DNA of 64,000 bases from Chloroflexota bacterium. GTDB taxonomy: Bacteria; Chloroflexota; Anaerolineae; Aggregatilineales; Phototrophicaceae. The first letter of the stretch is position 1. Every line of letters begins with the position of its first letter. The stretch is taken from the NCBI GenBank assembly GCA_028875245.1, contig JAPPEU010000033.1, positions 24,992 through 88,991 of the forward strand. The letters run 5' to 3'. Below, piece after piece: positions 4,907 through 64,000 of the stretch. The translations under genes were made by a program, and so were the position numbers. The notes beneath the pieces were generated by a model that saw only the letters and a list, made by a program, of their open reading frames with translations, made no database searches and was not told the origin of the DNA.

Positions 4907-4930
4907 AGCTTCTCTATCCCATTCTTTCTT

Positions 4931-8629: not shown

Positions 8630-8717
8630 TAGCTTTCTACGTGCCATGTCGCTCGCTGGGCGGTCCAGGGCGAGCATGACATCGTATTAGCGCCGCTCGC
8701 TGGCTGAGGAGGGCATC

Positions 8718-9530
8718 ATGCAGCAGAATGACAGCTTCCGTCTGGTCGTGCGGCGCGGGCCACAGCCCAACCACGCCTTTGAAATCAGCAAAGATGTCAC
8801 CACGCTGGGGCGCGATATCAGCAACGATATCGTGCTCAACGATCGCGAAACGAGCCGTCATCACCTGCGCCTGATGCTCGCCGGCGATACGCTGACGATT
8901 GAAGATCTCGGCTCGACCAATGGCACCTTCGTCAATGGCAAGCGCGTCTCCGGCGTGACGCCGCTGCAAAATGGCGACATGATCGGCCTGGGCGAGACGG
9001 TGACCCTGGCGCTGGAGAGCGTCAACACGGCGAGCAGCGCGCCGCCGCCCGCCATGGAAGCGCCCGCCCCGCTGCCCGCGCCGCCGGTGGAACCGGCCAT
9101 GCCCGCGCCGGAGCCAAATCTCACGCCGCCGCCCGCCGAATATGGCCTGCAAGGCGCGACGCCCCCACCAGCGGACCCCTATGCGCCAGCCGGCGAAGGT
9201 TTCCCGCCGCAGCAGCCGGCATACCCCGCTTATGCGGAACAGCCGGCCGCGCCAGCGCAGCAGCCCCAATATTATCCGCAGCAGCAAGCGGGTTACCAGA
9301 TGTCGCCGGCGCCGCCGCAAGGTTATCCCGGCTACGATTATGATCCCTACGCCGCGCGCGAGGAAAGCGGCGGCACATCGCCCTGGCTGATTCTCGGCTG
9401 CTTCGTCTTCTTCATTTTGGTCATCGTCTGCTTCGCCGGCATCGCCCTGACCTTGATCGATGTGCTCAATCTCTGGTGCGATCTGCCGGTGGTGCGGGAT
9501 GTCGTGCTGGCGCTCGGGTTTGGTTGTTGA
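8718..9530 (+). CDS. FHA-domain protein with Pro/Gln-rich linker and C-terminal membrane anchor
   Basis: 'TLGRDISNDIVLNDRETSRHHLRL...IEDLGSTNGTFVNGKRV' is a textbook FHA core. It is followed by a PAPxP/QQP low-complexity region and a hydrophobic C-terminus. Confidence 0.85.
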   Translation: MQQNDSFRLVVRRGPQPNHAFEISKDVTTLGRDISNDIVLNDRETSRHHLRLMLAGDTLTIEDLGSTNGTFVNGKRVSGVTPLQNGDMIGLGETVTLALESVNTASSAPPPAMEAPAPLPAPPVEPAMPAPEPNLTPPPAEYGLQGATPPPADPYAPAGEGFPPQQPAYPAYAEQPAAPAQQPQYYPQQQAGYQMSPAPPQGYPGYDYDPYAAREESGGTSPWLILGCFVFFILVIVCFAGIALTLIDVLNLWCDLPVVRDVVLALGFGC

Positions 9531-9600
9531 CAATTCTTGCACCCCCATCCCCGTCAGATTTGGATTTGTAGGGGGGCGCTGAAACGCCCGTTGCGACAGC

Positions 9601-9878: not shown

Positions 9879-9969
9879 TGGTGAAATCGGCCTATATGTA
9901 AACAAATAGTCGCCCTTTGACGCGCGCGGGATGCTAGCCTGCGCGGAGACAAATCGAAGGAGCGACCCA

Positions 9970-11382
9970 ATGTTCAACTGGCTCACCGACTTTTTCCACA
10001 CTCGCCGCGACAAACTGCGCCCGCGCGCGCCCCACATCGAACGGGTGGCGGCGCAAAACCGCTACGCCCTCAATCCGCCGCTCGATATCCACAGCGCCCG
10101 CGTTTACGAAGGCTCGCCCTGGGTCTACGTCGCCATCAACCGCATCGCCGAAGCCGGCGCCCTCGTGCCGCTCAAGGTTTATCGGCTGGCCGGCGAAAAG
10201 CGCATCGGCATTGAGAATCACCCGCTGGAGACGCTGCTGAACGCGCCCAATCCGTTGACCAGCCGTTTCGAGCTTTTCGAGCAGACGATCGGCTCGCTGG
10301 AATTGCAGGGCAACGCTTACTGGTTCCTGGCGGGCGATGAGCGCGGACAGCCGCGCGAGATCTGGCTGCTGCGGCCGGACCGCGTCACGATCGTCCCCCA
10401 TGAGCGGCGCATCGTCGCCGGTTACCTCTATGAGATCAACGGCGAGCGCATCCCGCTGGACGCCCTGGAAGTGCTGCATTTTCGGCGCTGGCATCCGGCG
10501 GACGACTTCTACGGCCTCTCGCCCATCGCGGCGGCGCGCGGCGCAGTGCTCAGCGACCGGCACATGGCCGACTGGAACCGCAACACCTTCGGCCAGGACA
10601 ATGGCGTGCCGGCCGGCATCGTCAATATCAAGGACTTCATCAGCGACACCGACTTCGAGCGGGTCAAGCGCGAATGGCGGGGCAACTATGGCGGCGCGGC
10701 GCGGCGGACCGCTTTCCTGCGCGGCGGCGCCATGGAATGGCAGCACATCGGCTTGAGCCACAGCGATCTCGATTTCCTGCAGGGCCGGCGGGCCCAGCGC
10801 GACGAGATCCTCAACATCTTCGGCATCCCGGTCGGCCTGGTCAGCGAGAACGCCACCGAAGCCAACGCGGTAGTCGCCGAGCGCCAATTCATCGAGCGCA
10901 CGCTCTGGCCCAAGCTGGCGCGCATCGCCCAGAAGATCACGCAGGATTTGCTGCCCTTCTACGGCGCGGACCTGGTCGCCGAATACGATGACATCCGCCC
11001 GACCGACGCCCAAGCGCGCCTGGCAGAGATTCGCACGGCCTACCCGCTGCTGAGCATCAACGAGCTGCGCGCGCAATACTTCCAGCTGCCGCCGGTGGAA
11101 TGGGGCGATGTGGCGGTAAGCCCTCACTCCCCGCTTAACCCCGCTCTAAATCTCCCCCCGACGCATCAGGGGGAGACTTCCGTCGCCAAGTCCGTGCTGG
11201 ACGAGCTGGCGCAGTGGGAGCGGTTCGCGCTGAATCGGCTGGAGCGGGCGGAGCCGGGGAGACCGTTTGAAGTGACGTCGCTGCCGGACGAACTGGCTTT
11301 CGAGGTCAGCGCCGGGCTGCTGTTCGCGCGCGATCGGGAGAGTGTGAAGTCGGTGTTTGCTGGGGTTAGGGCGGGGCTTTAA
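9970..11382 (+). CDS. phage portal protein, HK97 family (orphan)
   Basis: GAAGGAG RBS before the ATG at 9970. The N-terminal 'SPWVYVAINRIAEA...', 'NPLTSRFELFEQTIGSLELQGNAYWF' and 'FGIPVGL' regions are typical of HK97-type portals. Confidence 0.8.
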   Translation: MFNWLTDFFHTRRDKLRPRAPHIERVAAQNRYALNPPLDIHSARVYEGSPWVYVAINRIAEAGALVPLKVYRLAGEKRIGIENHPLETLLNAPNPLTSRFELFEQTIGSLELQGNAYWFLAGDERGQPREIWLLRPDRVTIVPHERRIVAGYLYEINGERIPLDALEVLHFRRWHPADDFYGLSPIAAARGAVLSDRHMADWNRNTFGQDNGVPAGIVNIKDFISDTDFERVKREWRGNYGGAARRTAFLRGGAMEWQHIGLSHSDLDFLQGRRAQRDEILNIFGIPVGLVSENATEANAVVAERQFIERTLWPKLARIAQKITQDLLPFYGADLVAEYDDIRPTDAQARLAEIRTAYPLLSINELRAQYFQLPPVEWGDVAVSPHSPLNPALNLPPTHQGETSVAKSVLDELAQWERFALNRLERAEPGRPFEVTSLPDELAFEVSAGLLFARDRESVKSVFAGVRAGL

Positions 11383-15446: not shown

Positions 15447-15477
15447 CTCTCTGTGCCCTCTGTGCCTCTGTGGTGAA
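15447..15477. repeat. octamer-repeat module CTCTGTGCCCTCTGTGCCTCTGTGGTGAA
   Basis: Identical core to 19229..19259 and 39942..39972. Confidence 0.75.
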
Positions 15478-19134: not shown

Positions 19135-19228
19135 GTATTATTCCTAATGCATTGTACGGTTGGGCGGATCGGCGGGCGACCCCAATGGGTCACTCCTGCA
19201 AGGATTCCAAGAATTGATGGCGCCCCGT

Positions 19229-19259
19229 TTTCTCTGTGCCCTCTGTGCCTCTGTGGTGA
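19229..19259. repeat. octamer-repeat module
   Basis: TTCTCTGTGCCCTCTGTGCCTCTGTGGTGA abuts the stop codon of P2. Confidence 0.75.
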
Positions 19260-19261
19260 GT

Positions 19262-20572
19262 TTATTCACCCGCCAGCGTTGTCTTCGCCAGCGCCGTGTA
19301 GCGCTCGAACATATCATCCAGCGCGAAATGGGGCTGCCCGATGATGTATGAATAGACCGTGTTATTGAAATTTCGCGTCCAGTGTTCAGGGATGGCGTCT
19401 ACCCCGTAAGCGGCGCCGAAGATGCTGCCGGCGGTGGCGGCGGTGCAATCGTTGTCGAGGCCCATGGCCACGGTTTCGCTGATGACTTTGCCGAAATCTT
19501 CACCGCCGATGGTCAGCCCCCAGATAGTCAGCGCGGCATTGTTGATGGTGTGAATGCGGTGCATGCCGGCGAAGCGCTCGTCGACGGCGGCGCGCGCCTC
19601 GCGGTAGTCATTGATGCCGCCGGCGGCTTCCAGCGCCCAGCGTATTTCGCGCGCCAGCAGGCAATCAGCGGGTATCTCCGCCAGGCCGGCTTCCAGCGCC
19701 TGCATTGGATCCCCCAGGGCGAAGGCGGCGGCGATCACAGCGGAGAAGTACATCGCGCCGTAGATGCCGTTTCGCCGATGGCTGATGGTCGCGTCGCGCC
19801 AGGCGAACTCAGCGGCTTTCTCGGGATAACCGGGCGCGGCGTAGCCCCAAGGGTCGGAGCGGATATCGGCGCCGATCCAGAACATGAAGGGATTATCGAC
19901 AGTCGCCGCAGCCATCGGCGGGACGCCGTTGTGCAAATTGCGCAGGGCGACGCCTTCCGCCGTCGCCGCATGGGGCAGGTATTTCATCCAGGCGGCGCCG
20001 ACATCGTCCACGCTGAAGCCGGGCCCATAATCTTCCAGGATGAGCATGCCCAGCTGGGTGTAGATGATGTCGTCATCGGTGGGCACGCCATCCATTTTGG
20101 AGCGGGTGAAGGCCTCGCGCAGGCTTGTCTTGTATTTGAGATCATGCGGCCGTTCCGCCTCGCTCCAATAATCAGTCGGCGGGAAGGCGTCGCCTAAGTA
20201 TTCCGCCCAGCGCTCCATCTTCTCGATCTCCCAGCATTCGACGATCGAGCCCAAAACACAGCCAGCGAAGCGTCCCATGATCGCGCCTTCAATGCGGTCG
20301 AGGTAGGAGTCTTCCGGCAGTTCTGTCCAGTAGCGGCGCGTCCCCGCCGGCCGCAGGGCGCGGATGCCATCCAGGTCGTCCGGTTCCAGCGCTTGCAGCG
20401 CGGGGTCATCGGGCAGGGCGCGCAGCTCGGCCAGCTTCTCGCTTAGCAGGACGTTGATCTCCCCCACTTTCTCGGCGACGCCGGGAGCGCCCGTTTCCGC
20501 CTTCAGCTGGGCCCAGACGTTTATGGACCGGTCGATGTCTTCCAGGGGCTCGGGATAATTATAGTTGGTCAT
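19262..20572 (-). CDS. ADP-ribosylglycohydrolase-like protein, tandem paralog P2
   Basis: Same architecture as P1. Both N-termini begin with the same MTNYNYPE octapeptide. Confidence 0.8.
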   Translation of the reverse strand: MTNYNYPEPLEDIDRSINVWAQLKAETGAPGVAEKVGEINVLLSEKLAELRALPDDPALQALEPDDLDGIRALRPAGTRRYWTELPEDSYLDRIEGAIMGRFAGCVLGSIVECWEIEKMERWAEYLGDAFPPTDYWSEAERPHDLKYKTSLREAFTRSKMDGVPTDDDIIYTQLGMLILEDYGPGFSVDDVGAAWMKYLPHAATAEGVALRNLHNGVPPMAAATVDNPFMFWIGADIRSDPWGYAAPGYPEKAAEFAWRDATISHRRNGIYGAMYFSAVIAAAFALGDPMQALEAGLAEIPADCLLAREIRWALEAAGGINDYREARAAVDERFAGMHRIHTINNAALTIWGLTIGGEDFGKVISETVAMGLDNDCTAATAGSIFGAAYGVDAIPEHWTRNFNNTVYSYIIGQPHFALDDMFERYTALAKTTLAGE

Positions 20573-20628
20573 GGGTTGCTCCTAAATGGTTGCATGCTTG
20601 TTCATATCGTCCTCTCAAGGAGAAACTT

Positions 20629-20742
20629 GTAGGGGCGTCTTGCTGAGACGCCCGCGTTCTGTACATGGGATTTCAGGCGAGCCGCCGTCTCGCCCCTACA
20701 GTTTCGAATGATTGCAGGCGACCCGGTTGGGCAGTCCCTACA
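20629..20742. repeat. cluster of GTAG-type GC-rich hairpins (REP/BIME-like)
   Basis: GTAGGGGCGTCTTGCTGAGACGCCC..., GGCGAGCCGCCGTCTCGCCCCTAC and GCAGGCGACCCGGTTGGGCAGTCCCTAC in alternating orientation. Confidence 0.75.
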
Positions 20743-20758
20743 ATCTCGCGCGCGGCGA

Positions 20759-22066
20759 CTAGCCCGCGGCGTGCGTCTTCTCCGCTTGCGCGACAAAGCG
20801 ATCGATGACGTCATCTATGGCAAATGGCGATTGGTGATAGAGGAAGGTATGCACCTTGTTGTTGAAGTTCTTGTACCAGTGTTTGGGGATGGCGCTTTTG
20901 CCATAGACGGCGCCCCAGATGCTGCCGGCGGTGGCGGCGGTGCAGTCGTTGTCCTTGCCCATGGCGACCGTCTCGCCGATGACCTTGCTGTAGTCCTCGC
21001 CACCAACCGTCAAGCCCCAAACGGTTAGCACGGTGTTGTTGATGGCATGCGCGCCGCCCATGACCGTATAGCGCTCCTCGATGGCGGCGGCGGCATCGCG
21101 ATAGTTCGCGATCTGCGGCGCGACTTCCAGCGCCCAGCGTGTCTCGCGCGCCAGGTAACAGTCGGCCGGTATTTCTTCGAGGCCGATCTTGAGCGCGTCG
21201 ACTGTGTTGTCGACGGCGAAGGCGGCTGAAATGGCGGCGGAGAAGAACATGGCGGCGAAGATGCCATTGCGCCGATGGCTCACGTAGGCGTCGCGATGGG
21301 CGAACTCGGCCGCTTTCTCCGGCCAGCCGGGCGCGGCATAACCCCAGGGGTCGGAGCGGATGTCGGCGCCGATCCAGTTCAGAAAGGGATTATCGACCTC
21401 GGCCGCCTGCAGCGGCGCGACGCCCTTGCGCAGGTTGTCGAGCGCGATGCCTTCGGCGGTGAAGGCGAAGGGCAAATACTTGATCCAGGCCTCGCCCAGC
21501 TCGTCGGTGGTGAAATCGAGCCCGTACTCCTCGAGGATCATCAGGCCGAGCAGCGTGTAGTTGAGGTCGTCATCGGTGGGTACGCCGTCCATCTTCGCCG
21601 GCGTGAAATCTTCGCGCAGGCTGGTCTGATACTTCTGCATGTGCGGCTGTTCGGCGACGCTCCAATAATCCACCAGCGGGTATTCGTCGCCGAGATAAGC
21701 GGCCCAATCTTCCATGCGTTCGACCGTCCAGCCTTCGACGATGGAACCGAGTGTGCAACCGGCGCAGCGCCCGAGCCAGGAGCCTTCGAGGCGCTCGCGA
21801 AAATCGTCGGCGAGCGAGTTCCACATTCGGCGTCCGCCGGCGGGGCGCAGGCGGCGGATCGTCTCCAGGTCGTCGGGTTCCGCTTTTGCCAGGGCGGCGT
21901 CGTTGGGCAGCGCGTCGAGCTCCGCGACTTTCTGCGCGAGCAGGGCTTCGATCTCGGCCACCTTTTCGGCCACGCCCGGCGCGCCAAACTCGACTTTCTG
22001 CTGGGCGTAGGCGTTGATCCTGCGTTCCCAGGCCGCTACCTTGTCCGGATATTCAAATAGACGCAT
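20759..22066 (-). CDS. ADP-ribosylglycohydrolase-like protein, tandem paralog P3
   Basis: GAGGAG RBS before the ATG at 22066 (MRLFEYPD). 'AMGKDNDCTAATAGSIWGAVYG'. Confidence 0.8.
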   Translation of the reverse strand: MRLFEYPDKVAAWERRINAYAQQKVEFGAPGVAEKVAEIEALLAQKVAELDALPNDAALAKAEPDDLETIRRLRPAGGRRMWNSLADDFRERLEGSWLGRCAGCTLGSIVEGWTVERMEDWAAYLGDEYPLVDYWSVAEQPHMQKYQTSLREDFTPAKMDGVPTDDDLNYTLLGLMILEEYGLDFTTDELGEAWIKYLPFAFTAEGIALDNLRKGVAPLQAAEVDNPFLNWIGADIRSDPWGYAAPGWPEKAAEFAHRDAYVSHRRNGIFAAMFFSAAISAAFAVDNTVDALKIGLEEIPADCYLARETRWALEVAPQIANYRDAAAAIEERYTVMGGAHAINNTVLTVWGLTVGGEDYSKVIGETVAMGKDNDCTAATAGSIWGAVYGKSAIPKHWYKNFNNKVHTFLYHQSPFAIDDVIDRFVAQAEKTHAAG

Positions 22067-22255
22067 GATGTTCTCCTCTGTGAAATTTCTTTGCCGACTG
22101 AATAAAGCTTTCTTCGTGGGATTGCTCGACACTATTTCGCCGTCTCTTGCGCCATTAGGCTACCCACTGCCTTTAGACACTCGCTAATGCAAGAATGATT
22201 GCGGTAACATAAAATTGCGTTAGCGTATCTGAACCAGATCGAGATCGGACAATCA

Positions 22256-22468
22256 ATGGAAAGCATTGTGGCAGAGTCGTTGTCGCCCGCGGATAATACT
22301 AGCACGACGCAAGAGTCTATCCGAGAGCGTATGAAAGGCATTGAAAAAGATATTGAGTGGATCAAACGGCTGCTCTTTGTCATGATCGCCGGTATGCTCG
22401 CATTGTTTGTAGTTCTCTATGAGCTGCGAGGGACAGTTGAAGCGATTCAGAATAGCTTGTCAAACTGA
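22256..22468 (+). CDS. small coiled-coil protein with C-terminal transmembrane helix (XhlA-like topology)
   Basis: 70-aa ORF in a low-GC pocket, on the opposite strand to its neighbours. 'IEWIKRLLFVMIAGMLALFVVLY' is a hydrophobic helix. Weak RBS. Confidence 0.45.
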   Translation: MESIVAESLSPADNTSTTQESIRERMKGIEKDIEWIKRLLFVMIAGMLALFVVLYELRGTVEAIQNSLSN

Positions 22469-22584
22469 ACTGTTGTCCGCGCCAAAGCCAGCATTTGATT
22501 TGATGGTTGTGATGCAATGCCATTTCCTAAACTTATCAAAATGTTGACGGGCGACCTCACAGATTCGAAACGAATGCGGTTCGC

Positions 22585-23892
22585 CTAACTCTCCGCCATG
22601 ACCCTTTCGGCCTGGGCGGCGAAGCGATCTACGGTGTCATCAATGGCGAAGGTCCGCTTGCCGTTCAGGTAAGAGTGCATCGTGTTGTTGAAGTTGCGCG
22701 TCCAATGTTCCGGTATCGCGCTCGCCCCATAGACGGCGCCGAAGATGCTGCCCGCGGTGGCGGCCGTGCAGTCGTTATCCTGGCCCATGGCGACGGTCTC
22801 GCCGATGACCTTGGTGTAGTCATCACCGCCGACGGCCAAGCCCCAAACCGTCAGAGCGTTGTTCTGCAGGGAATGCGACTTCCACAAGCCGGGATAGCGT
22901 TCTTCACAGAGCGCGGCGGCGTCTTTGTAACCGGAAATCGACGGCGCCTTATCCAGCGCCCAGCGAATTTCACGCGCCGTAATGGACTCGGCGGGAATCT
23001 CTTCCAGGCCGATTTGCAGCGCTTCCATCGGATCGTCGACGGCGAAGGCGGCCGCGATCGCCGCTGAGAAGTACATGGCGGAATAGATGCCGTTGCGGCG
23101 GTGGCTGATTGTCGCGTCGCGCCAGGCGAATTCGGCCGCTTTTTCCGGCCAGCCGGGCGCGGCGTAGCCCCAGGGGTCGGAGCGGATATCGGCGCCGATG
23201 AAGTTGAGGCAGGGGTTGTTGAGCGCGCCCGCTTGCAACGCCGGCACGCCATTGCGCAGGTTCTCCAGCGCGACGCCCTCGGCGGTGAAGGCGAAGGGCA
23301 GGTATTGCACCCAGGCGGCGCCCACATCTTCGACGGTGAAATCGGGACCGTATTCTTCCAGAATCAGCAGGCCAAGCGCGGTATAGTTGAGGTCGTCATC
23401 GCTGGGCACGCCGTCCATCTTGGCGGGCGTGTAATCGTGGCGGGTGCTGACCTTGAGCCGGGGCTCGTGGGGCTGTTCCGCCTGGCTCCAATAATCCACG
23501 AGCGGGAAGGGGTCGCCGATATAAGCGGCCCAGCGCTCCATGCGGTCGACCTTCCAGCCTTCGACGATAGAGCCGAGCGTGCAGCCGGCGCAGCGCGCCA
23601 GCCAGGCCCCTTCCAGCCGATCGCGGAAGTCGTCGGGGAGCGATGTCAGCATGCGGCGGCGGCCGGCGGGGCGCAAGGCCAGGATGGACGGCAGATCGTC
23701 TGGCTCCGCCTGCTCCAGCGCGGGGTCATTGGGCAGCGCGTCGAGCTCCGCGACTTTCTGCTTGAGCAGCGCTTCAATCTCGGCGACCTTTTCCGCGACG
23801 CCCTGGGCGCCGAATTCGACCTTTTGCTTGGCATAGCGGTTGATGGTCAGCTCCCAGCCTTCCAAATCGTCAACATAATCAAAAAGCTTCAT
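22585..23892 (-). CDS. ADP-ribosylglycohydrolase-like protein, tandem paralog P4
   Basis: ATG at 23892 (MKLFDYVDD). 'AMGQDNDCTAATAGSIFGAVYG'. Confidence 0.8.
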   Translation of the reverse strand: MKLFDYVDDLEGWELTINRYAKQKVEFGAQGVAEKVAEIEALLKQKVAELDALPNDPALEQAEPDDLPSILALRPAGRRRMLTSLPDDFRDRLEGAWLARCAGCTLGSIVEGWKVDRMERWAAYIGDPFPLVDYWSQAEQPHEPRLKVSTRHDYTPAKMDGVPSDDDLNYTALGLLILEEYGPDFTVEDVGAAWVQYLPFAFTAEGVALENLRNGVPALQAGALNNPCLNFIGADIRSDPWGYAAPGWPEKAAEFAWRDATISHRRNGIYSAMYFSAAIAAAFAVDDPMEALQIGLEEIPAESITAREIRWALDKAPSISGYKDAAALCEERYPGLWKSHSLQNNALTVWGLAVGGDDYTKVIGETVAMGQDNDCTAATAGSIFGAVYGASAIPEHWTRNFNNTMHSYLNGKRTFAIDDTVDRFAAQAERVMAES

Positions 23893-24081
23893 AGCATCAT
23901 CCTGTTTCAAAGCATCAATTGGCAGTTCCGCAAGCATAACAATTCAGACAACCCGCGTCAAAAGAATCTCGATTGCTTGAATTACCGAGGCAATACCTGT
24001 CTCGCCACCGTCCAACAGCTTAAAGAAATTTGCGGGCGAGCCGGCGGCAATCGGGCGGATCCGCGCGCTAATGAACGTTTC

Positions 24082-24993: not shown

Positions 24994-25210
24994 GGGCGTT
25001 TCAGCGCCGCGACATAGGGCGCGTAGACACTGACCGCCGACACTGCGGGTCAAACGCCCCTGCGGGTCTTCAAATTGCAAGATTTTAATTACTTATTTGG
25101 AACTACAGTCCCTCACGAGTGGCAACTCGGCTCACACAAAAATATGAACCCGCAAAATGGAAAGTTTTAGATTGCTTACTTGGAATCACTTCTGTGCCTC
25201 TGTGGCGAAA
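24994..25210. repeat. composite repeat block: GC hairpins, inverted copy of the ~75-bp module (25103..25160), octamer tail
   Basis: 25103..25160 is the reverse complement of the module at 53991..54066 with few mismatches. Confidence 0.7.
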
Positions 25211-37243: not shown

Positions 37244-37533
37244 CTGTAGCGGCGTTTAGGTTAAACGTCCGTCCATGCGATAGCGCGCGCTTTAGAGCGA
37301 GACAAGGGTCGCGTAGACACTGACCGTCTCTCGCCCCTGTTTACGTTGCGGGCAGTCAACCCCACCCCCGGCCCCTCCCCGACGAGTCAGGGAGGGGAGC
37401 GAAACGCGCCGAGATGCAAAGTGTTTTGCGTGAGCCGCTGCTGTGCAGCGCGTGTGTCTACAGATTCCCATTTTCGGAGTTCGTCAGTTTATAGGAGCCG
37501 AGTCCTGACTTGCGAGGGGCTGTGGTGAAAAAG
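37244..37533. repeat. composite repeat block (reverse-complement copy of the 59648..59740 unit, C/G hairpin, ~75-bp module ending TGTGGTGAA)
   Basis: 37260..37340 reads as the reverse complement of 59650..59735. 37458..37533 is a module copy abutting the hydrolase stop. Confidence 0.7.
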
Positions 37534-39894: not shown

Positions 39895-39941
39895 CAGCTG
39901 GCCACATCAGCGTATGCCCACCGAGGTCCATAGATGCAGTT

Positions 39942-39972
39942 TTCTCTGTGCCCTCTGTGCCTCTGTGGTGAA
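39942..39972. repeat. octamer-repeat module
   Basis: TTCTCTGTGCCCTCTGTGCCTCTGTGGTGAA lies between the ARH stop and the PfkB start. Confidence 0.75.
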
Positions 39973-43007: not shown

Positions 43008-43217
43008 GTAGGGGCGAGCAATTGGGGCGCCCGAATGAAACCTCTGCGTCATCAGTAGCGCAAAGAAAGTAAGGCAATAATACAAGGAGCGTGTAGGGGC
43101 GTCTCGCTGAGACGCCCGCTTACCCAGCCACCCAATTGTCGGGCGTTTCAGCGAAACGCCCCTACGGATTTCATTTGCATAAGTGACTTTCACTGGCCTC
43201 TGTGCCTCTGTGGTGAA
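43008..43217. repeat. REP-like hairpins plus octamer tail
   Basis: GTAGGGGCGAGCAATTGGGGCGCCC, GTAGGGGCGTCTCGCTGAGACGCCC, GGGCGTTTCAGCGAAACGCCCCTAC, ...CTCTGTGCCTCTGTGGTGAA. Confidence 0.75.
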
Positions 43218-49230: not shown

Positions 49231-50379
49231 CTACATATCGTCCATCATCAGGTCGTCGATGGTCATGCCGGCGGTGGGCATATCGGCGCAAGCGGCGCCG
49301 ACCGAAGCCATCATGTCCTCGCTGGTGAAGACGGTCTGAACTTCGATATCGCCGGCGACCACTGCCTCCTCAGCCGCTTCCACCATGGCCTTGATGTCAT
49401 CGGAGGTGGCCATGTCATAGAACTCGTTCTTGGCCAGGCCGACGCCGCCCTCGGGGATGCCCAGGCTCTCGGCGGAGCCGTAAGGCAGCATGCCCTCGAG
49501 GTGCAGGGTGATGGCGCGGAAGATCGAGTTATCGACATTCTTCAGCATGGATGTCAAGATGCGCTCGGCTTGATCGGGGTCGGTCTCGGCGACGATGATC
49601 GCCTGATCCGAATCGACGCCGATGGCATAGCGCCCCTGTTCCTGCGCCGCTTCAAAGACGCCAACGCCGGTGCCGCCGGCGACCTGGAAAACGATATCGG
49701 CGCCTTGTTCGTACATCGCCAATGTGATCTCCTTGCCGCGCGCCGGGTCATTCCAGCTGCCCGCGTATTGGACGATGCTCTGCGACTCCGGATTGACCAG
49801 GCAAGCGCCTTGCTCGTAGCCGACGATGAAGTCGTCGATGACCGGAATCTGCTGCCCGCCAACTGCGCCGATGATGGGCGCGTCGTTGGTGCCTTCAAGC
49901 ATGCTGGTGGTGATGGCGGCGGCATAAACGCCGGCCAGGAAGGAGCCCTGATTCTGCGCATAGGTCATCGAATAGACATTGGCGCAGGCGTCGACGCAGA
50001 CATCGGCATTGTCATAGGGCATCGGCGCGTCGTAGAACATGAAGTACTTGTCGGGATAGTTGTGCGCGTTGGCCGCCATGAAATCGATCATCTGGAAGGT
50101 GCCGGCAAGCAGGATGTCGTAAGAATCCGTATCCGCCATCACATCCAGCAAGCCCGACTCCCAATTGGCCGGGTCGATGCCCAGCTCGACTGTATCGATC
50201 TCGATGTCGTATTCATCGGCGATGGCGTCCATGCCGCGCTGGGCGCTATCGAAGAAGGATTTGTCGCCCAAGGTGCCGTTGATGACCGATACGACCCTGA
50301 GCGGCTCATCCTGGGCGACGGCTGTGAAAGCCATCAAGAACACAAGCATCAGCGCTAGCGCAATCCGTAGCTTATACAT
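49231..50379 (-). CDS. BMP-family (PnrA/Med-like) ABC substrate-binding lipoprotein, nucleoside type
   Basis: GGAGGAAACTA RBS before the ATG at 50379. Signal peptide MYKLRIALALMLVFLMAFTAVAQ. 'GGTGVGVFEAAQEQGRYAIGVDSDQ'. Confidence 0.85.
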   Translation of the reverse strand: MYKLRIALALMLVFLMAFTAVAQDEPLRVVSVINGTLGDKSFFDSAQRGMDAIADEYDIEIDTVELGIDPANWESGLLDVMADTDSYDILLAGTFQMIDFMAANAHNYPDKYFMFYDAPMPYDNADVCVDACANVYSMTYAQNQGSFLAGVYAAAITTSMLEGTNDAPIIGAVGGQQIPVIDDFIVGYEQGACLVNPESQSIVQYAGSWNDPARGKEITLAMYEQGADIVFQVAGGTGVGVFEAAQEQGRYAIGVDSDQAIIVAETDPDQAERILTSMLKNVDNSIFRAITLHLEGMLPYGSAESLGIPEGGVGLAKNEFYDMATSDDIKAMVEAAEEAVVAGDIEVQTVFTSEDMMASVGAACADMPTAGMTIDDLMMDDM

Positions 50380-50383
50380 TAGT

Positions 50384-50461
50384 TTCCTCCGTTTTATGAT
50401 TGTCGAATCAGATGGAATTCTGATGGCGCTATTATAACCGCGTTTGGCGCGATTCGGCAAA
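50384..50461 (-). promoter_or_regulatory. promoter + 5'UTR module, copy A (TTGCCG-18-TATAAT, dyad ATCAGA-N6-TCTGAT, GGAGG)
   Basis: On the minus strand: -35 at 50455..50460, -10 at 50431..50436, dyad at 50407..50424, RBS at ~50386. 78 nt identical to 51367..51444. Confidence 0.55.
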
Positions 50462-50784: not shown

Positions 50785-51361
50785 CTAAACCTGGTGATGG
50801 CAGACATGCTGAATAGGCCTGACGTAAACGATCGGCTGCACCTGAACCACGAGATTGAAATTTAACTGCATCCGAAGCGTCTTGCCAGAATTCTGAAAAG
50901 CATTGTTTAACTGTATGTCACGCACATCGTGACCGTAAGGCGCCCCGATAAGTTCGTACCATTGCGCTATGAAACGGTCGAACGTGAACGAGCCGCCTGA
51001 CACGATTATCTCTACGCGCGCCTTTGAAGTAACGGTGGTAAGCGCGCCCCACTTCTGGCACTCGTAAGTCGAAATGACTTTCGAGCCGCTTGCCAACCAA
51101 CCGTAGTCGGAGTCACGTTGAAACACGAAATCCGCCGCCATCGCGTCGCCAGACAATCTCGCCACAACAGCTTGCGCCTCCTCAAGGTTTTCAATGCTGA
51201 AGACATCACCTGATTTCAACAGCGAGCCAGTGGGTACAAAACCATTGCCGCGCAAATATGCGTCTATTTCGGCAAAGTCCTTAGGTTGCCTCTTGCGCCG
51301 CAACGGTGAAAGCCAGCAAGAACGCAAGCATTGCCGCAAGCAACATTCGTAGCTTTTTCAT
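50785..51361 (-). pseudogene. secreted/lipoprotein-like gene of unknown function with a frameshift after the signal peptide
   Basis: ATG at 51361 gives MKKLRMLLAAMLAFLLAFTVAAQEAT, then TAA. The long ORF (50785..51339) continues in another frame from '...KDFAEIDAYLRG'. Confidence 0.45.
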
Positions 51362-51366
51362 TTGCG

Positions 51367-51444
51367 TTCCTCCGTTTTATGATTGTCGAATCAGATGGAA
51401 TTCTGATGGCGCTATTATAACCGCGTTTGGCGCGATTCGGCAAA
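51367..51444 (-). promoter_or_regulatory. promoter + 5'UTR module, copy B
   Basis: 78 nt identical to 50384..50461. Confidence 0.5.
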
Positions 51445-51459
51445 AGAATCGAAAGCCAG

Positions 51460-51626
51460 GTAGGGGCGACATACCATGTCGCCCGCCAAATCACAAACCC
51501 CAGGGCCAACCTGTCACGGCGTCCGAAACCGCATCCTATCGCAACGACGGGCGATTCACAGAAACGCCCCTACGGATTCCCATTTGGGTGCGCCGAGTTG
51601 TGGCTCGCGAGCTGCTGTGGTTACAA
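51460..51626. repeat. REP-like hairpins plus shortened composite module
   Basis: GTAGGGGCGACATACCATGTCGCCC ... GGGCGATTCACAGAAACGCCCCTACGGATTCCCATTTGGGTGCGCCGAGTTGTGGCTCGCGAGCTGCTGTGG. Confidence 0.7.
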
Positions 51627-53799: not shown

Positions 53800-54066
53800 G
53801 GACGGCAGAGCCGCTGTGTCTACGCGCGGTAGCATGTCGCCCGACGCACATTTATGAATTCCGCAACGGCGACCCAATGGCTCGCCCCTACAGAGACTAT
53901 ACTGCGGGCAAACTGGCGTTTCAGCGCCGCGACCCCTGTCTCGCCCTAAACCTCGCGCTATTGCATGGACGGGCGTTTCAGCGAAACGCCCCTACAGATT
54001 CCTATTTTGCGGGTTCGTAATTTTGTGTGAGCCGAGTTGTCACTCGCGAGCGGCTGTGGTGAATCC
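53794..54066. repeat. large composite repeat block ending in the ~75-bp module (53991..54066)
   Basis: Contains several hairpins shared with 59648..59740 and 37244..37340, then CCTACAGATTCCTATTTTGCGGGTTCGTAATTTTGTGTGAGCCGAGTTGTCACTCGCGAGCGGCTGTGGTGAA. Confidence 0.75.
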
Positions 54067-58646: not shown

Positions 58647-59564
58647 ATGACTAGGCCTGATTATCTAGCGATCGGCAGCATCATCATCGACGACATCGTC
58701 TATCCCGACGGTCGCACGAGCATGGGCGTGCTGGGCGGCGGCGGCAGTCACGCGGCTTACGGCATCGCCTTCGCTGGCGAGAAGCCGGGGCTGGTCGGTT
58801 TGGTCGGCGAGGACCTGCCGGGCGATATCCGCGCGCGCCTGGAAGCCGATTTCGAGCCTGCCGGTCTCGTCTGGACGCGGCATCCGCAGCTGCGCGGCTG
58901 GCAGATATTCGAGTGGAACGGCGTCCGCAACGAGATCTTCCGCGTCGAGGTCGTTGAGCCATTTATGTATGGTCCGGCCGCCGACAGCGCCGCCGTGCCT
59001 TTCGAGAGCGTGCGCGGTTTCACGCTGCTGCGCGCGCCGGAGCATGTCGCCGGTTGGCGCGCCCGCTACCCGGAGGCGGTGCTGCTCTGGGAACCGGTGC
59101 GCATTTTCATGCTCAGCGCCGAGCGCGAAGCCTTCCTGGAGGGCGTCAAACCGGCCGATATCGTCTCGCCCAACCTGCACGAAGCGGGGACGATGTACGG
59201 CATCGAGGACGAAATCGAGATCATGCGCCGGATGCTGGCCGATGGCGTGAAGGTGGCGGCCCTGCGCATGGGCGAGCTCGGCTCATTGGTGGCGCGGGCG
59301 GGCGATGGGCGCGCCTATTACATCCCCGCCGTCGAAGTGGCTGAGGTGGTCGATCAAACGGGGGCGGGCAATACCTATTGCGGCGGCTTTTTGGTCGGCT
59401 GGTGCCGCGGGGGCGATGTCGTGACGGCGGGCTGTTATGGCGCGGCGGCGGCGTCTTTCACGCTGGAGGCGGTCGGCTGCGCGCGGATGCCGGCGGAGCT
59501 GGCGCTGGAGTGGGCGCGCAGGTTGGATGAAGCGCGGGCCGGGGTGCGGTCCGTAGCGCTCTGA
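58647..59564 (+). CDS. PfkB-family kinase-like protein with GAGN instead of GAGD
   Basis: 'AIGSIIIDDIV' and 'VVDQTGAGNTYCGGF'. The AAT codon is at 59370..59372. Confidence 0.75.
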   Translation: MTRPDYLAIGSIIIDDIVYPDGRTSMGVLGGGGSHAAYGIAFAGEKPGLVGLVGEDLPGDIRARLEADFEPAGLVWTRHPQLRGWQIFEWNGVRNEIFRVEVVEPFMYGPAADSAAVPFESVRGFTLLRAPEHVAGWRARYPEAVLLWEPVRIFMLSAEREAFLEGVKPADIVSPNLHEAGTMYGIEDEIEIMRRMLADGVKVAALRMGELGSLVARAGDGRAYYIPAVEVAEVVDQTGAGNTYCGGFLVGWCRGGDVVTAGCYGAAAASFTLEAVGCARMPAELALEWARRLDEARAGVRSVAL

Positions 59565-59647
59565 GATTCCATCTATGAAGCTCGGGGCCGTCTGTGCCTC
59601 CTTATTGATGAATCTGCAAAGTGCCATCTGCAATCGTAGCGAAATTT

Positions 59648-59821
59648 GTAGGGGCGAGAGACGGTCAGTGTCTACGCGACCCTTGTCTCGCCCTACGAGC
59701 TCGCGATATCGCATGGACGGGCGTTTCAGCGAAACGCCCCTACAGCTTCCTTTTGTCGGGGATCCGTAATTTTGTGTGAGCCACGTCGTGACCTGTGAGG
59801 GGCTGTGCGCAAATCATCCGT
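59648..59821. repeat. composite repeat block plus ~75-bp module, copy 1 of the asnB 3' duplication
   Basis: GTAGGGGCGAGAGACGGTCAGTGTCTACGCGACCCTTGTCTCGCCCTAC..GGGCGTTTCAGCGAAACGCCCCTACAGCTTCC...TGAGCCACGTCGTGACCTGTGAGGGGCTGTGCGCAAATCATCCGT. Confidence 0.75.
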
Positions 59822-59919
59822 ATGTTCCTGGCGCACAGCGTCAACTTGCTGACGTACCCAAACCAGGAACGCCAAAACGCCGCTTGCCACGCCCACCAGA
59901 GCGGCAAGCGAAGTGAGGA

Positions 59920-60072
59920 TTACGAGATCCACGTATGCCCGCTCAGGAGAAGAACGCTCAAAACCGCGAACAATATGGCCAAGTAGAACGACAGGATTAT
60001 GACCAAGGCGAAGAATGCAGTGGGAATCTGTCGGCGACGCCTTTCCAAAGAATTGTCCACATCGCTCATCAT
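59920..60072 (-). CDS. candidate 50-aa single-pass membrane peptide (MMSDVDNSLERRRRQIPTAFFALVIILSFYLAILFAVLSVLLLSGHTWIS)
   Basis: Not in the supplied track because it is under 60 aa. GAGGAC RBS 5 nt before ATGATG at 60072. Basic N-terminus plus one long hydrophobic helix. Lies inside a low-GC cargo flanked by direct repeats. It competes with the 163-aa track ORF in another frame. Confidence 0.3.
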   Translation of the reverse strand: MMSDVDNSLERRRRQIPTAFFALVIILSFYLAILFAVLSVLLLSGHTWIS

Positions 60073-60189
60073 TTGAGTCCTCTACAACTTCAGTTTGATT
60101 ATATCCATTCATGGCGAAGCAATCAAGAATTCCTTCGCTCCACCCTATACTATGAGCCACGTCGTGACCTGCGAGGGCTTGTGGTGAAA

Positions 60190-62070
60190 TCATCCGTCCA
60201 CAAACTGACGATGCCATTCCTCCAGCGTGAGCAGGGCCCAGAGCTGCCGATTGTGATCACGCGCGCCCGCTTCGTGCTCGGCGATTAAACGCTCGACCGC
60301 CGAGATCTCCAGCAAGCCGCGTTCGCGCGCCCGCCGGCTGAGCAAGAGCTCGCGCATTGGCGCCATATCGCGCCGGAGCCAAGCGCCCAGCGGTACGCCA
60401 AAGCCGTGCTTTTTCCGGTCGATGATCTCGGGGGGGAGCAAGCCCTGCGCCGCCTCTTTGAGAATATGCTTGCTGCGCGAGCCTTTGAGCTTGAGGTTGA
60501 ATGGGATGATGGCGGCGGATTCAGCGAGCTCATGATCAAGGAAGGGGGCGCGCGTTTCCAGCGAGGCGGCCATGCTGCAGCGGTCGGCTTTGATCAGCAG
60601 GTCGTCGGGCAGATAAGACCGCATATTCGCTTGCACAAGTTCGGCGACAGGCTGAGTTTGGCCGGGATTCATATAGGCATTCATGGTCGGCTGAGTTGGA
60701 TCGGCCTTGGGGCAGATATCCGCCAGCAGCGTCGCATCGAAAATGCGGACCAGGTCGAAATAAGCATCCGCCAACCCTTGACTCGCCGCCCGCGCGAAAC
60801 GACGGGCGCGCTTGATCGGGTCATAGTAACCGGTTCCCTCTGGCAAGCGCCGGAGCAATTCGGCCGCGCCGCGCAGAAACGGCCCCGGCATGAATTGGAG
60901 CTTTCGCATCAGATCGACGGCGTAGAAGCGCTCATAGCCGGCGAAGAGCTCATCGCCGCCATCGCCGGTCAGCGCGACCGTCACCTGTTCGCGCGTGAGC
61001 TTGCTGACCAGGTAGGTGGGGATGGCGCTGCTATCGGCGAAGGGCTGATCGTGATGCCGGACCAGGTCGGAGAGCAGGCTCAATGCCTCGGGCTCGACGC
61101 GGAACGTGGAGTGCTCGGTCTCGAGATGGCGGGCGACTTTCTCGGCGTAGAGGCTTTCGTCGAAGGTCTCATCGCCCGCGAAGCCGATGCTGAAGGTTTT
61201 GATGGCGCTGTTGCTGCCCCGGCGCATCAGGGCGACGATCAGGCTGCTGTCGAGGCCGCCGCTCAAAAAGGCGCCCAGCGGCACATCGCTGATCAGGCGC
61301 AGTTTCACCGCTTCCGCCAGCTGTTCGCGCAGATCGCCGACATAAGTCGCCGCCTTGGCCGCCGGTTCGGGGGGCGCGAGCGGGGGCAAGTCCCAATAGC
61401 GCTGCTCCCGCGTCGCGCCGGATGGCTCGACATGCAGGGCACTCGCCGGTTGAAGCATGTGTATGCCGGCGAATGCGGTCTGTGGCGCTGGCACATAGCC
61501 GAAACTCAGGTACGCAGCCAGCGCGCGCCGGTCATCTCCCTCGAAGCGGGAGACGCGGGGTATAGCGGGATGCGCCAATAGTGCCTTGATCTCGCTGGCG
61601 AATGCGAAGACCTTGTTGTTCGCATAATAATAGAGCGGCTTCTGGCCGAAGCGGTCGCGCGCCAGGAGCAGGCGCCGCCGCCGCCCGTCCCAAAGCGCCA
61701 GCGCGAACATGCCGCGCAGGTGCTTCAGCGCGTCGGGGCCATGATCCTCGTAGAGATGAGCGATCGTTTCGCCATCGCCATCGGTTTTGAAGCGGTGCCC
61801 GCGCCCCATGAGCTGGCGGCGCAGCGCGCGATAATTGTAGATTTCGCCGTTGAAGATGAGGACAACGGAGCCGTCTTCGCTGCTGAGCGGCTGATCGCTG
61901 CCGGCGATGTCGATGATTTTCAGGCGGCGCATCGCCAGACCGATGTTTCCGTCGCTGAAATAACCAGCGCCGTCGGGACCGCGATGAGCGAGCCGCTCGT
62001 TCATGCCCGTCAGCAGCGCGCGACTGACCGGCTTTCCGTCGAAATGGATGACGCCGCAGATTCCGCACAT
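60190..62070 (-). CDS. asnB: asparagine synthase (glutamine-hydrolysing)
   Basis: N-terminal 'MCGICGV' Ntn-amidotransferase nucleophile. 'SGGLDSS' PP-loop. 626 aa. Confidence 0.9.
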   Translation of the reverse strand: MCGICGVIHFDGKPVSRALLTGMNERLAHRGPDGAGYFSDGNIGLAMRRLKIIDIAGSDQPLSSEDGSVVLIFNGEIYNYRALRRQLMGRGHRFKTDGDGETIAHLYEDHGPDALKHLRGMFALALWDGRRRRLLLARDRFGQKPLYYYANNKVFAFASEIKALLAHPAIPRVSRFEGDDRRALAAYLSFGYVPAPQTAFAGIHMLQPASALHVEPSGATREQRYWDLPPLAPPEPAAKAATYVGDLREQLAEAVKLRLISDVPLGAFLSGGLDSSLIVALMRRGSNSAIKTFSIGFAGDETFDESLYAEKVARHLETEHSTFRVEPEALSLLSDLVRHHDQPFADSSAIPTYLVSKLTREQVTVALTGDGGDELFAGYERFYAVDLMRKLQFMPGPFLRGAAELLRRLPEGTGYYDPIKRARRFARAASQGLADAYFDLVRIFDATLLADICPKADPTQPTMNAYMNPGQTQPVAELVQANMRSYLPDDLLIKADRCSMAASLETRAPFLDHELAESAAIIPFNLKLKGSRSKHILKEAAQGLLPPEIIDRKKHGFGVPLGAWLRRDMAPMRELLLSRRARERGLLEISAVERLIAEHEAGARDHNRQLWALLTLEEWHRQFVDG

Positions 62071-62168
62071 GTCGAGCGGTCCTCGCTTTGAATCAGCCGT
62101 ATGGTATTATGTACTGTAAAGGCTGCGCAAGATCTCATGCGAAGCCACTCTCACCTAGCAAAGTTTTG

Positions 62169-62197
62169 TTGACCAATGGTCAGAACCGCGTTATGCT
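62169..62197 (+). promoter_or_regulatory. sigma-70-like promoter TTGACC-17-TATGCT for the small gene at 62221
   Basis: -35 at 62169..62174, 17-nt spacer, -10 at 62192..62197. GGGAGG RBS at 62210..62215. Confidence 0.45.
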
Positions 62198-62220
62198 GCG
62201 GACAATTATGGGAGGCGCTT

Positions 62221-62469
62221 ATGGTCGCCGAAGCAAAATCCGGTCAAGACGTCGAACGACTGGCAGTTATCGAAACTCGGATGGACTCATTCGTCGCGAA
62301 GGATCAACACGAACGCGACAACGGCGACATTAAGGTTGCCCTCGCCCAACTCCGTGGCGAAGTCAACAATCTGCGAACCGATATCAAGAATCTCACCTGG
62401 CAGATTGCGGTGGTAGTCGCCATCCTGTCCAGCATCATTTCCTTCCTGGTAAGCAGAATCCCCATTTAG
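62221..62469 (+). CDS. small coiled-coil protein with C-terminal transmembrane helix (XhlA-like topology)
   Basis: GGGAGG RBS 5 nt before the ATG at 62221. 'LAQLRGEVNNLRTDIKNLTWQIAVVVAILSSIISFLV'. Lower GC than its flanks. Confidence 0.5.
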   Translation: MVAEAKSGQDVERLAVIETRMDSFVAKDQHERDNGDIKVALAQLRGEVNNLRTDIKNLTWQIAVVVAILSSIISFLVSRIPI

Positions 62470-62490
62470 CCGGCGACGCCAACCGGCGGT

Positions 62491-62529
62491 TTTCCGTCGA
62501 AATGGATGACGCCGCAGATTCCGCACATG
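62491..62529 (-). repeat. orphan duplicate of the asnB start (ATG + 13 codons)
   Basis: 39 nt identical to 62033..62071. It reads MCGICGVIHFDGKPPVGVAG, then stop. Confidence 0.85.
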
Positions 62530-62674
62530 ACTTTAGTCTAGCACCTGGATGGCGTTGCCTATCATACAGCGCGCGCCGCCGGATTACCCAATCTATTGAA
62601 GCGGCAGTGGCGTTAATGTATGGCTCGCTGTCATAGTTTTTGCGTCGGTGTAGTCGCTGGTATGAGGAAGGAAA

Positions 62675-64000
62675 TCAATCCAGCGGCGAGCGCAAATGCC
62701 AATCGGTCGCGCGCTGATAAGCCGCGCCCACTTGCAGGAGGCGCTCCTCCGTGAAGGGCGCGCCCAGGATTTGCAAGCCGATGGGCAAGCCGGCCGCGTC
62801 AAAGCCGCAGGGCAGGCTCAGGCCGGGGATGCCGGCCAGATTGGCCGATATCGTCAGCACATCGGCCAGGATCATACGCAGGGGATCCTCGGTCACCTCG
62901 CCGAATTTGAAGGCGGTGGATGGGGCGACCGGCGCGATCAAGACATCGACCTCGTTGAAGAGCGCGTCGAAGTCCTGCCGGATGAGCGTACGCACCGCCT
63001 GCGCCTTGCCATAGTAGGCGTCGTAATAGCCGGCCGAGAGCGTATAGGTGCCCAGCATGATGCGGCGCTTAACCTCTTCGCCGAAGCCGGCGCCACGCGT
63101 CTTTTTGTAGGTATCGATCAGATCGGCGCCATCGACGCGGGCGCCAAAACGGACGCCGTCGTAGCGGGCCAGGTTGGCGCTCGCCTCCGCCATGGCGATG
63201 ATGTAATAGGCGGGCAGGCAATAATCAGCGTGCTCAAAGCTGACTTCGCGCGCCTCGGCGCCCATGCCCTCCAAAGCAGTCACCGCCGCGCGCACCGCCG
63301 ACTCCACCGCCGGCTGCAAACCCTCGGCGAAGTATTCTTTGGGCAAACCGATTTTCAAGCCGCGGATGTCGCCGCTGAGCGCCGCGGCATAATCAGGCGC
63401 GGGCGTCGGCATGCTGGTCGAATCGAGCGGGTCCTGCCCGGCGATGACCGCCAGGACGCGCGCCAGATCGTCGACTGTGCGGGCGAAGGGGCCGGCCTGG
63501 TCGAAGGAGGAGCCATAAGCGATCAAGCCATAACGCGAGACGCGCCCGTAGCTTGGCTTGATGGCGGATACGCCGCAGAATGAGGCGGGCTGGCGAATGC
63601 TGCCGCCGGTGTCCGTGCCCAGGGTCGCCAGCGCCATGTTCGCCGCCACCGCCGCCGCGCTGCCGCCGCTGCTGCCGCCGGGCACATGATCGAGATTCCA
63701 GGGATTGGCGGTGGGGAAGAAGCCGCTGTTTTCGGTCGACGAGCCCATGGCGAACTCGTCCATATTCAGCTTGCCGAGCATGACGGCGCCGGCGGCATAC
63801 AGGCGGGCGACGGCGGTCGCGTCGAAGAGCGGACGATAACCCCGCAAGATTTTCGAGCCGCAGGTGGTTTCGATGCCTCTGGTCGAGAGCACATCCTTGA
63901 GGGCGATGGGGATGCCCAGCAGCGGGCGCTCGTCGCCGGCCGCGCGCGCCGCGTCAGCCGCCCGGGCCTGTTCGCGGGCAAAATCAGCGCTGACGGTCAA
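62675..64000 (-). CDS. gatA: Asp-tRNA(Asn)/Glu-tRNA(Gln) amidotransferase subunit A (5' end outside window)
   Basis: Amidase signature '[13 protein letters not shown]' and '[18 protein letters not shown]'. The ORF is open to the window edge. Confidence 0.9.

Follow-up and report, generated by a model that had tools for sequence, protein, structure and literature searches.

A doubled asnB start in a Chloroflexota contig as the probable junction between two versions of the gatA-asnB spacer

In a 64-kb stretch of the Chloroflexota contig JAPPEU010000033.1 (below, the window; the host is described as a sponge-associated Chloroflexota species), the start of asnB, the gene for a glutamine-hydrolysing asparagine synthase, is present twice, once at the head of the gene and once more on the side of the neighbouring gatA, with a small divergent gene between the two. 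How did one gene come to have two starts? Comparison with relatives makes it probable that two alternative forms of the gatA-asnB spacer, each found separately in related Chloroflexota, recombined here and that the doubled start is the scar at their junction. Alignment shows the locus itself to be a mosaic of these two haplotypes, here called A and B, each half being orthologous to relatives.

The two copies of the asnB start and what lies between them

An earlier examination of the window (the sequence-only reading) had reported 39 nt in common between 62033-62071 and 62491-62529, and this identity was confirmed: the string has two matches in the window and none in 100 dinucleotide-preserving shuffles of it, on which the chance level of the repeat was gauged. 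Extended without gaps, the repeat covers 43 nt with a single mismatch (42/43; 62029-62071 against 62487-62529). The copies lie 458 bp apart in direct orientation and bracket a module of about 415 bp, in which GC is about 0.46-0.55, against about 0.62-0.70 in asnB and gatA. The further claim that homology runs to about 50 nt with indels did not hold, as alignment gave no convincing similarity of the two copies beyond coding position +42. As had been described, the proximal copy heads the full asnB, whose product carries the Pfam domains Asn_synthase (1.3e-104) and GATase_7 (3.4e-46), and the distal copy heads only a short open reading frame (ORF) of 20 codons. The promoter, the ribosome-binding site (RBS), the 82-aa gene on the opposite strand and the lower GC content that had been described between the copies were likewise all found. 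The features of the locus, including the Shine-Dalgarno sequence (SD) of asnB, are as follows, with the basis of each in brackets.

60190..62070, minus strand: asnB, glutamine-hydrolysing asparagine synthase, 626 aa, full length (ORF and Pfam)
62029..62071, minus strand: proximal repeat copy, made up of asnB codons 1-14 and the base before the ATG, the head of the functional gene (repeat search, alignment)
62072..62130, minus strand: leader A of asnB, with SD GAGGA (62080-62084) and the putative promoter TTGCGC-18-TACCAT (62125-62130 / 62101-62106) (sequence reading)
62169..62215, plus strand: predicted small-gene promoter TTGACC-17-TATGCT (62169-62197) and RBS GGGAGG (62210-62215) (consensus scan)
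62221..62469, plus strand: small gene encoding 82 aa, the N-terminal part a coiled coil and the C-terminal part a membrane helix, WQIAVVVAILSSIISFLVSRIPI (ORF, family alignment)
62470..62486, no strand: junction spacer from the small-gene stop to the distal copy, with a 1-nt indel among strains (strain alignment)
62466..62528, minus strand: relic ORF or stub of 20 codons, MCGICGVIHFDGKPPVGVAG, all that the distal copy heads (ORF list)
62487..62529, minus strand: distal repeat copy, read as the stranded original asnB start, inside the relic ORF (alignment to the starts of L182, L181 and L174)
62530..62674, minus strand: native gatA-asnB spacer with the leaderless-type promoter PB (orthology to L182, L181 and L174)
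62535-62543, minus strand: extended -10 element of PB, TGCTAGACT (TAGAAT in other strains) (pattern match)
62675..64000, minus strand: gatA, an amidase like subunit A of the Glu-tRNA(Gln) amidotransferase, its 5' end beyond the window (ORF; PF01425 Amidase on the gatA of strain contig L001)

The arrangement is common to the strains of the species. An exact match to the 82-aa protein was found on 13 strain contigs from ENA, JGI and Logan assemblies, and on all 13 the gene lies between asnB and gatA; the ten of these contigs that were fetched all hold both repeat copies wherever they reach them. Strains of about 98% identity carry a synonymous G>A change in the proximal copy that is absent from the distal copy, and the junction beside the distal copy differs among strains by a 1-nt indel that alters the C-terminus of the stub peptide. 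Since such strains share both copies, together with a copy-specific single-nucleotide polymorphism (SNP) and the junction indel, the duplication is older than the divergence of the strains. The two copies evolve independently, and the C-terminus of the stub peptide is not conserved.

Two versions of the spacer in related loci

Eleven related loci were compared with the window, eight of them reached through homologues of the small protein (L172, L173, L174, L175, L177, L178, L179 and L180), together with L176, L181 and L182. Scans with AsnB of two large collections of genome and metagenome contigs returned only relatives of at most 55% identity, swamped by generic asparagine-synthase motifs. 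The gene order asnB (-), spacer, small gene (+), gatA (-) is found in 8/8 of the small-gene loci, with PfkB beyond asnB wherever the contig extends that far. No second asnB start is found in these loci, or in any of the 11 related loci examined. Because the small gene is resident and syntenic in eight relatives without the duplication, the module is, on this comparison, resident DNA of the clade and not foreign or mobile cargo.

Version A consists of an SD-containing asnB leader and the divergent 82-aa gene, and is seen in L172, L173, L175, L177, L178 and L180. The spacer between asnB and the small gene in the window aligns to that of L172 (77% over 147 nt) and also to those of L180, L177, L178 and L175. 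The SD GAGGA before asnB recurs in L172, L173 and L180. Leader A includes a conserved block, GTACATAATAC(C/T)ATAC, that recurs in L172, L175, L177, L178 and L180, and so in all version-A loci but L173. In those same five loci, the promoter of the small gene has the form TTGAC(C/T)-17-TA(A/C)GCT, with AGGAGG or AGGAGA behind it. A separate asnB promoter, TTGCGC-18-TACCAT, conserved in relatives, probably lies in leader A. The closest small-gene relative, L177 (91% protein identity), has unrelated sequence directly after the small-gene stop.

Version B has no such leader. In L182, L181 and L174, asnB stands directly behind GTGCTAGAATA(A/G)(A/G)NNC-ATG, with no SD; the promoter form in these loci is TGCTAGAAT-6 nt-ATG (GTGCTAGAATAnnnnC-ATG), and TGCTAGAAT is also read in other strains. 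L176 has a diverged equivalent of PB, TGATAAACT-GGGCCT-ATG. The small gene is missing from L176, L181 and L182, and L174 is a distant lineage that has the small gene yet a B-type asnB start. In leaderless genes, the -10 box TANNNT is known to begin some 12 nt before the start codon (PMC3160421). PB has this form: the window reads TGCTAGACT-AAAGTC-ATG at 62526-62543 (-), in which the hexamer, preceded by TG, has its first T at -12 relative to the ATG, and there is no SD. The distal copy is preceded by GGTGCTAGACTAAAGTC-ATG, where other strains read TAGAAT...GCC. PB would thus be an active leaderless promoter, as predicted from its sequence.

The origin of the distal copy can be read from its flank. 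The copy and about 50 nt upstream of it align with L182 (…TGTAT.A…ATCCA(A/G)GTGCTAGA…), and the flank shared by L182, L181, L174 and the window reads ATCCA(A/G)GTGCTAGA(A/C)TAAA..CATG. By this alignment, the distal copy with about 50 nt upstream is shown to be the ortholog of the version-B promoter and start, which bears out the statement of the sequence-only reading that this copy keeps the native upstream region of asnB. The sequence upstream of the proximal copy does not align with the B-type asnB upstream region, and the two leaders are unrelated.

A comparison with an empty site in relatives, as the sequence-only reading had suggested, is provided by L182, in which gatA, a 110-nt spacer, GTGCTAGAATAAACGC and the asnB ATG follow one another with no small gene. 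On its gene order, L182 is effectively an empty site, though of another species (AsnB 79%) and not of a strain of the window species. AsnB identity to the window is 86% for L176, 80% for L181 and 79% for L182, and 76-77% for the full-length A-type L172, L173, L175, L178 and L180. GatA identity is 93% for L176 (216 aa available), 91% for L181 and 89% for L182, and 83-86% for the same A-type loci. By these identities, the housekeeping genes group the window with the B-type L176, L181 and L182.

Probable recombination in the shared block and the alternatives to it

The only sequence common to versions A and B is the coding start of asnB, and the limits of the repeat (the ATG with one base before it, to codon 14) match those of the block shared across lineages. 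The first ~35-42 nt are the best-conserved stretch of asnB; over the first ~35 nt, L176, L181, L182 and L177 show at most 1 difference, with divergence from about codon 12-14 on. Because the limits of the repeat are those of the cross-lineage identity, it is likely that a crossover in this shared asnB block joined the two haplotypes. Two routes can be envisaged. In the first, a single crossover of a circularised fragment in the asnB start, of Campbell type, would put module A between PB and asnB; in the second, a one-sided homologous event combined with an illegitimate join would give the same product. Either route would necessarily leave the shared asnB stretch on both sides of the module, and the sequence alone fits both equally, so that the Campbell-type crossover over a short homology arm put forward by the sequence-only reading stays one of the two best mechanisms. 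In conjugation experiments with Escherichia coli, a single crossover of circularised DNA with the chromosome gave mostly integrants with flanking duplications of the homologous segment, of 109-950 bp (PMC3240628). The elements expected of such an event can be identified here, namely the homology as direct repeats flanking the insert (43 nt), the unoccupied arrangement (L182, a different species) and the donor arrangement with the module beside the same homology (L172, L173, L175, L177, L178 and L180). As to direction, the event may have been an insertion into a B-type locus, or the reverse. Insertion is favoured by the nearest relatives of the window, which are B-type and without the small gene, and by the stub, which is 42/43 identical to asnB while the adjoining spacer is strongly diverged from L182.

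Several observations weigh against the recombination described above. No recombination breakpoint or donor tract was seen in asnB or gatA by sliding identity, L176 being closest throughout. The small gene has 51-58% third-codon identity to A-type lineages, not above the 58-70% of asnB and gatA, and for this reason no sampled lineage appears to be a recent donor. The identity of the small protein also tracks that of GatA across relatives, which argues against a recent transfer from a sampled lineage; the donor could be an unsampled close lineage. A length of 43 nt is near the lower limit for a RecA-dependent crossover. No module-free strain of the window species was found, the two collection scans having returned only distant AsnB relatives, and PB and leader A are promoters by prediction from their sequences. 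These data also bear on the insert with duplicated homology proposed in the sequence-only reading: the bracketing of the module by the two copies stands, but its foreign origin does not, given the synteny in eight relatives and a synonymous divergence no lower than that of asnB and gatA.

The alternative that survives best, although we consider it unlikely, is that the dual structure is old. It would go back to the ancestor that the window species shares with L176, L181 and L182, the sister B-type loci having arisen by precise deletion between the 43-nt repeats. Selection or gene conversion would have kept the distal copy nearly identical, for instance because it begins a regulatory leaderless upstream ORF (uORF) or is an antisense target. 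A deletion between the repeats would give exactly the L182 junction, the synonymous divergence of the small gene fits a long vertical residence in the lineage, and a repeat-bounded presence or absence of similar size is seen among strains at the 3' end of asnB. However, a neutral relic should have decayed, and the stub remains 42/43 identical although the spacer upstream of PB is strongly diverged between the window and L182. The proximal synonymous change has not been copied to the distal copy, so no ongoing conversion is seen, and the 1-nt indel that alters the stub C-terminus indicates that the peptide is not conserved. On the AsnB-based grouping, at least two independent deletions would be needed as well. 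A regulatory leader peptide or uORF, conserved in relatives, was the case that the sequence-only reading had set against an insertion; it was rejected, since an upstream copy occurs in 0/11 related loci and the C-terminus of the stub is shifted by the indel.

Quite improbable is a self-templated duplication, in which a template switch or slippage during replication copied the locus's own asnB start to a position just downstream of the small gene, without any second haplotype. Source and copy are only 458 bp apart in direct orientation, and the bases after the small-gene stop in L172, L175 and L180 (CTT(G/T)AGCG) have a loose similarity to the bases that follow the distal copy (ACTTTAGTC), which could mark a clean insertion of about 60 nt. 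This CTTTAG similarity, however, extends over just 6-10 nt. Moreover, about 50 nt orthologous to the asnB promoter of L182, L181 and L174 flank the distal copy and are absent beside the proximal one, so the distal copy is not a simple copy of the proximal. The template-switch insertion offered by the sequence-only reading was rejected on this ground, as copying of the gene's own start leaves the PB-orthologous flank unexplained.

It is very improbable that the locus holds a miniature integrative or cis-mobilisable element, with the 43-nt repeats as attL and attR and a cargo of about 415 bp mobilised in trans by a recombinase encoded elsewhere. The repeats are direct, the segment that they flank is low in GC and holds a promoter and a gene of its own, and an element-side repeat would rebuild the 5' end of the target gene, complete with RBS. 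Integrative elements are known to rebuild the 5' ends of their target genes in this way. Yet the cargo is syntenic and free of repeats in eight relatives, and the 46 homologues of the small protein all belong to one family, those examined sitting at this one locus. A search of the 64-kb window with both DNA and protein found no second copy of the module DNA and no second or related small protein. No inverted repeat pair brackets 62072-62486, and no recombinase gene lies within or beside the module, where the ORF of note is that of the 82-aa membrane protein. A mobile element or transposon with a target-site duplication was rejected too, there being no transposase or bracketing inverted repeats in the module and no second copy in the window. 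An assembly artefact (a collapsed or chimeric join), for which nothing speaks beyond the source being a metagenome assembly, deserves next to no credence, as the same structure occurs in contigs of ENA, JGI and Logan assemblies from different samples, with copy-specific SNPs in strains of about 98% identity.

Consequences, neighbouring features and known systems

If the locus functions as its sequence suggests, PB would start a leaderless transcript at the distal ATG, from which the 20-codon stub would be translated; the transcript would run antisense through the small gene and then read into asnB, and asnB itself would be translated from the SD of leader A. No terminator-like site was found on the minus strand from 62529 to 62072, or between the small-gene stop and the distal copy, and RNA structure 3' of the small gene is no more stable than that of shuffles (z = -1.2). 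Because no recognisable terminator precedes the distal copy, the 3' end of the small-gene mRNA could carry 43 nt complementary to the asnB start. A search of Rfam over 59400-62800 at E <= 1 gave no known RNA family. A bolder proposal, to which we attach very little weight, is that, by virtue of the 43-nt repeats, the small gene and leader A form a 458-bp cassette excisable without a recombinase, the gain or loss of which would switch asnB between leaderless and SD-led expression (the L182 type being the excised state). As long as the cassette is in place, the small-gene mRNA, with 43 nt in its 3' end that pair perfectly with the asnB translation start, would regulate asparagine synthesis as an antisense RNA. 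After such an excision, PB joined to the body of asnB would read ...GGTGCTAGA(C/A)TAAAG(T/C)CATGTGCGG...GACGGAAAGCCGGTCAGTCGC, and the junction of the excised circle would read ...CCATTTAGCCGGCGACGCCAACCGGCGGTTTTCCGTCG...CACATGTCGAGCGGTCCTCGC.

Under recombination between the two haplotypes, the locus would be a natural example of a very short conserved coding start serving as the sole crossover point between otherwise unrelated promoter and leader haplotypes, the outcome being a stranded promoter and a stub ORF. It also offers a caution for annotation and for mobile-element hunting, in that low-GC DNA with a promoter, a gene and long direct repeats can nevertheless be resident. What is understood of recombination or gene regulation is not altered by it; the scar would be an instance of an already known type.

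For the small protein, 46 homologues were found (61-100% identity), many of them on contigs that also carry AsnB homologues. The family alignment has 19 invariant columns and a conserved N-terminal heptad-like region, with a 7-residue deletion in some members, and the C-terminal hydrophobic helix WQIAVVVAILSSIISFLVSRIPI is almost invariant. The sequence-only reading had called the protein XhlA-like. The window protein scores 13.1 bits against XhlA (PF10779; E = 0.11), below the Pfam gathering threshold of 34.7, and weak XhlA matches were obtained for 21/32 family members (best E = 6.2e-5); CCDC90-like and other coiled-coil families were matched, also below threshold, by comparable numbers of members. 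Searches of PHROGs and of PDB sequences with the small protein gave nothing specific. The similar architecture and the weak family matches uphold part of that description, but the score does not, and on these comparisons the protein is XhlA-like in architecture and not a demonstrated member of XhlA.

A further observation concerns the beginning of asnB (62033-62070), where the conservation of the first ~35 nt extends to synonymous sites: lineages whose asnB as a whole is only 77-85% nucleotide-identical show 0-1 differences there. This may reflect constraint from leaderless initiation or from the N-terminal catalytic Cys motif MCGICG. Direct repeats of about 45 nt (59777-59821 and 60153-60197; 87% identical) likewise bracket the 3' end of asnB (59777-60197). 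The segment between them is low in GC, about 375 bp long, and holds an ORF for a 50-aa membrane protein (59920..60072, minus strand) and a promoter-like TTGATT-17-TATAAT (60126..60098, minus strand). Strain L002 lacks window positions 59822-60152 and keeps one copy of the 45-nt repeat, a similar repeat-bounded difference in the same population. Conservation of the 50-aa protein downstream of asnB extends to L176 (90%), L175, L182, L181 and L173, and for this reason the state of L002 is most likely a deletion of the ~375-bp segment.

In relatives, the gatA-asnB spacer is a hot spot for insertions. In L175, an insertion sequence (DUF4096 + DDE_Tnp_1) separates asnB from the small gene, and an IS110-family transposase separates the small gene from gatA (L175:2674-3424, 4031-5260). 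L180 has a repeat-rich insertion of about 390 bp in the spacer (2320-2700), and an alpha/beta hydrolase gene takes the place of the small gene in L176 (1235-2449) and L181 (1963-3363).

Other repeats are found across the window. A dispersed intergenic family with the hairpin core GACGGGCGTTTCAGCGAAACGCCCCTACAG is present at 59650-59760, 53928-54000, 43140-43177, 51548-51586 and, as the reverse complement, 37244-37338; similar units (GGGCGA...TCGCCCCTACA) occur in intergenic regions of L173, L178 and L181. Elements with CTCTGTG/CACAGAG heptamers, ending in GTGGTGAA, directly follow the stop codons of minus-strand genes. They lie at 15448-15477, 19227-19259 and 39939-39971 (three copies, 29-33 nt identical), and also at 59777-59821, 60153-60197, 53999-54060 and 25102-25162. 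With the heptamer motif also present after gatA in L172, L173, L175, L176, L181 and L182, these elements may be a clade-wide gene-end or terminator-like repeat. The minus strand has four paralogues in tandem at 17836-23937, each encoding about 430-457 aa, with 70-78% DNA identity among them. Units of about 60 nt (82-92% identity between units) are repeated in tandem at 9590-9879, between ORFs 8637..9548 and 9931..11382, and a 139-nt direct repeat, 89% identical, recurs about 1 kb apart (50324-50461 and 51306-51444). Weak Terminase_6N/6C matches beside coaE, about 4 kb past gatA and beyond the window, are present in all strains (L001:11889-12249, L002:10457-12041); these may belong to a prophage remnant or to a cluster resembling a gene-transfer agent.

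Among known systems, XhlA (PF10779) resembles the small protein in its length of about 80 aa, N-terminal coiled coil and C-terminal membrane helix, but the small gene of the window is a conserved chromosomal neighbour of asnB, outside any phage lysis context. Integrative elements that carry a replacement end for their target gene likewise leave direct repeats of tens of nt (attL/attR) that overlap the gene end and keep the gene intact. Unlike these and cis-mobilisable elements, the module has no recombinase beside it, is the resident gene of the clade at its usual locus, and gives no evidence of mobility. Homology-facilitated illegitimate recombination (HFIR) during DNA uptake offers a parallel in that the asnB end would be anchored by homology and the other end joined without homology, right after the small-gene stop. 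HFIR anchors are generally much longer than 43 nt, and no donor tract is detectable inside asnB. By its definition, HFIR integrates sequence missing from the recipient (PMC3240628); in its classical form, it is expected to delete recipient DNA and not to duplicate it (PMC3240628). Campbell-type integration differs from the present case in that the homology here is about 42 nt, against duplications of 109-950 bp in E. coli (PMC3240628), and in that the donor would be, instead of a plasmid, the corresponding locus in the chromosome of another haplotype or lineage. Its products nevertheless share the form seen here: the shared homology ends up as direct repeats on both sides of the inserted DNA, one copy keeping its native upstream region and the other heading the intact gene.

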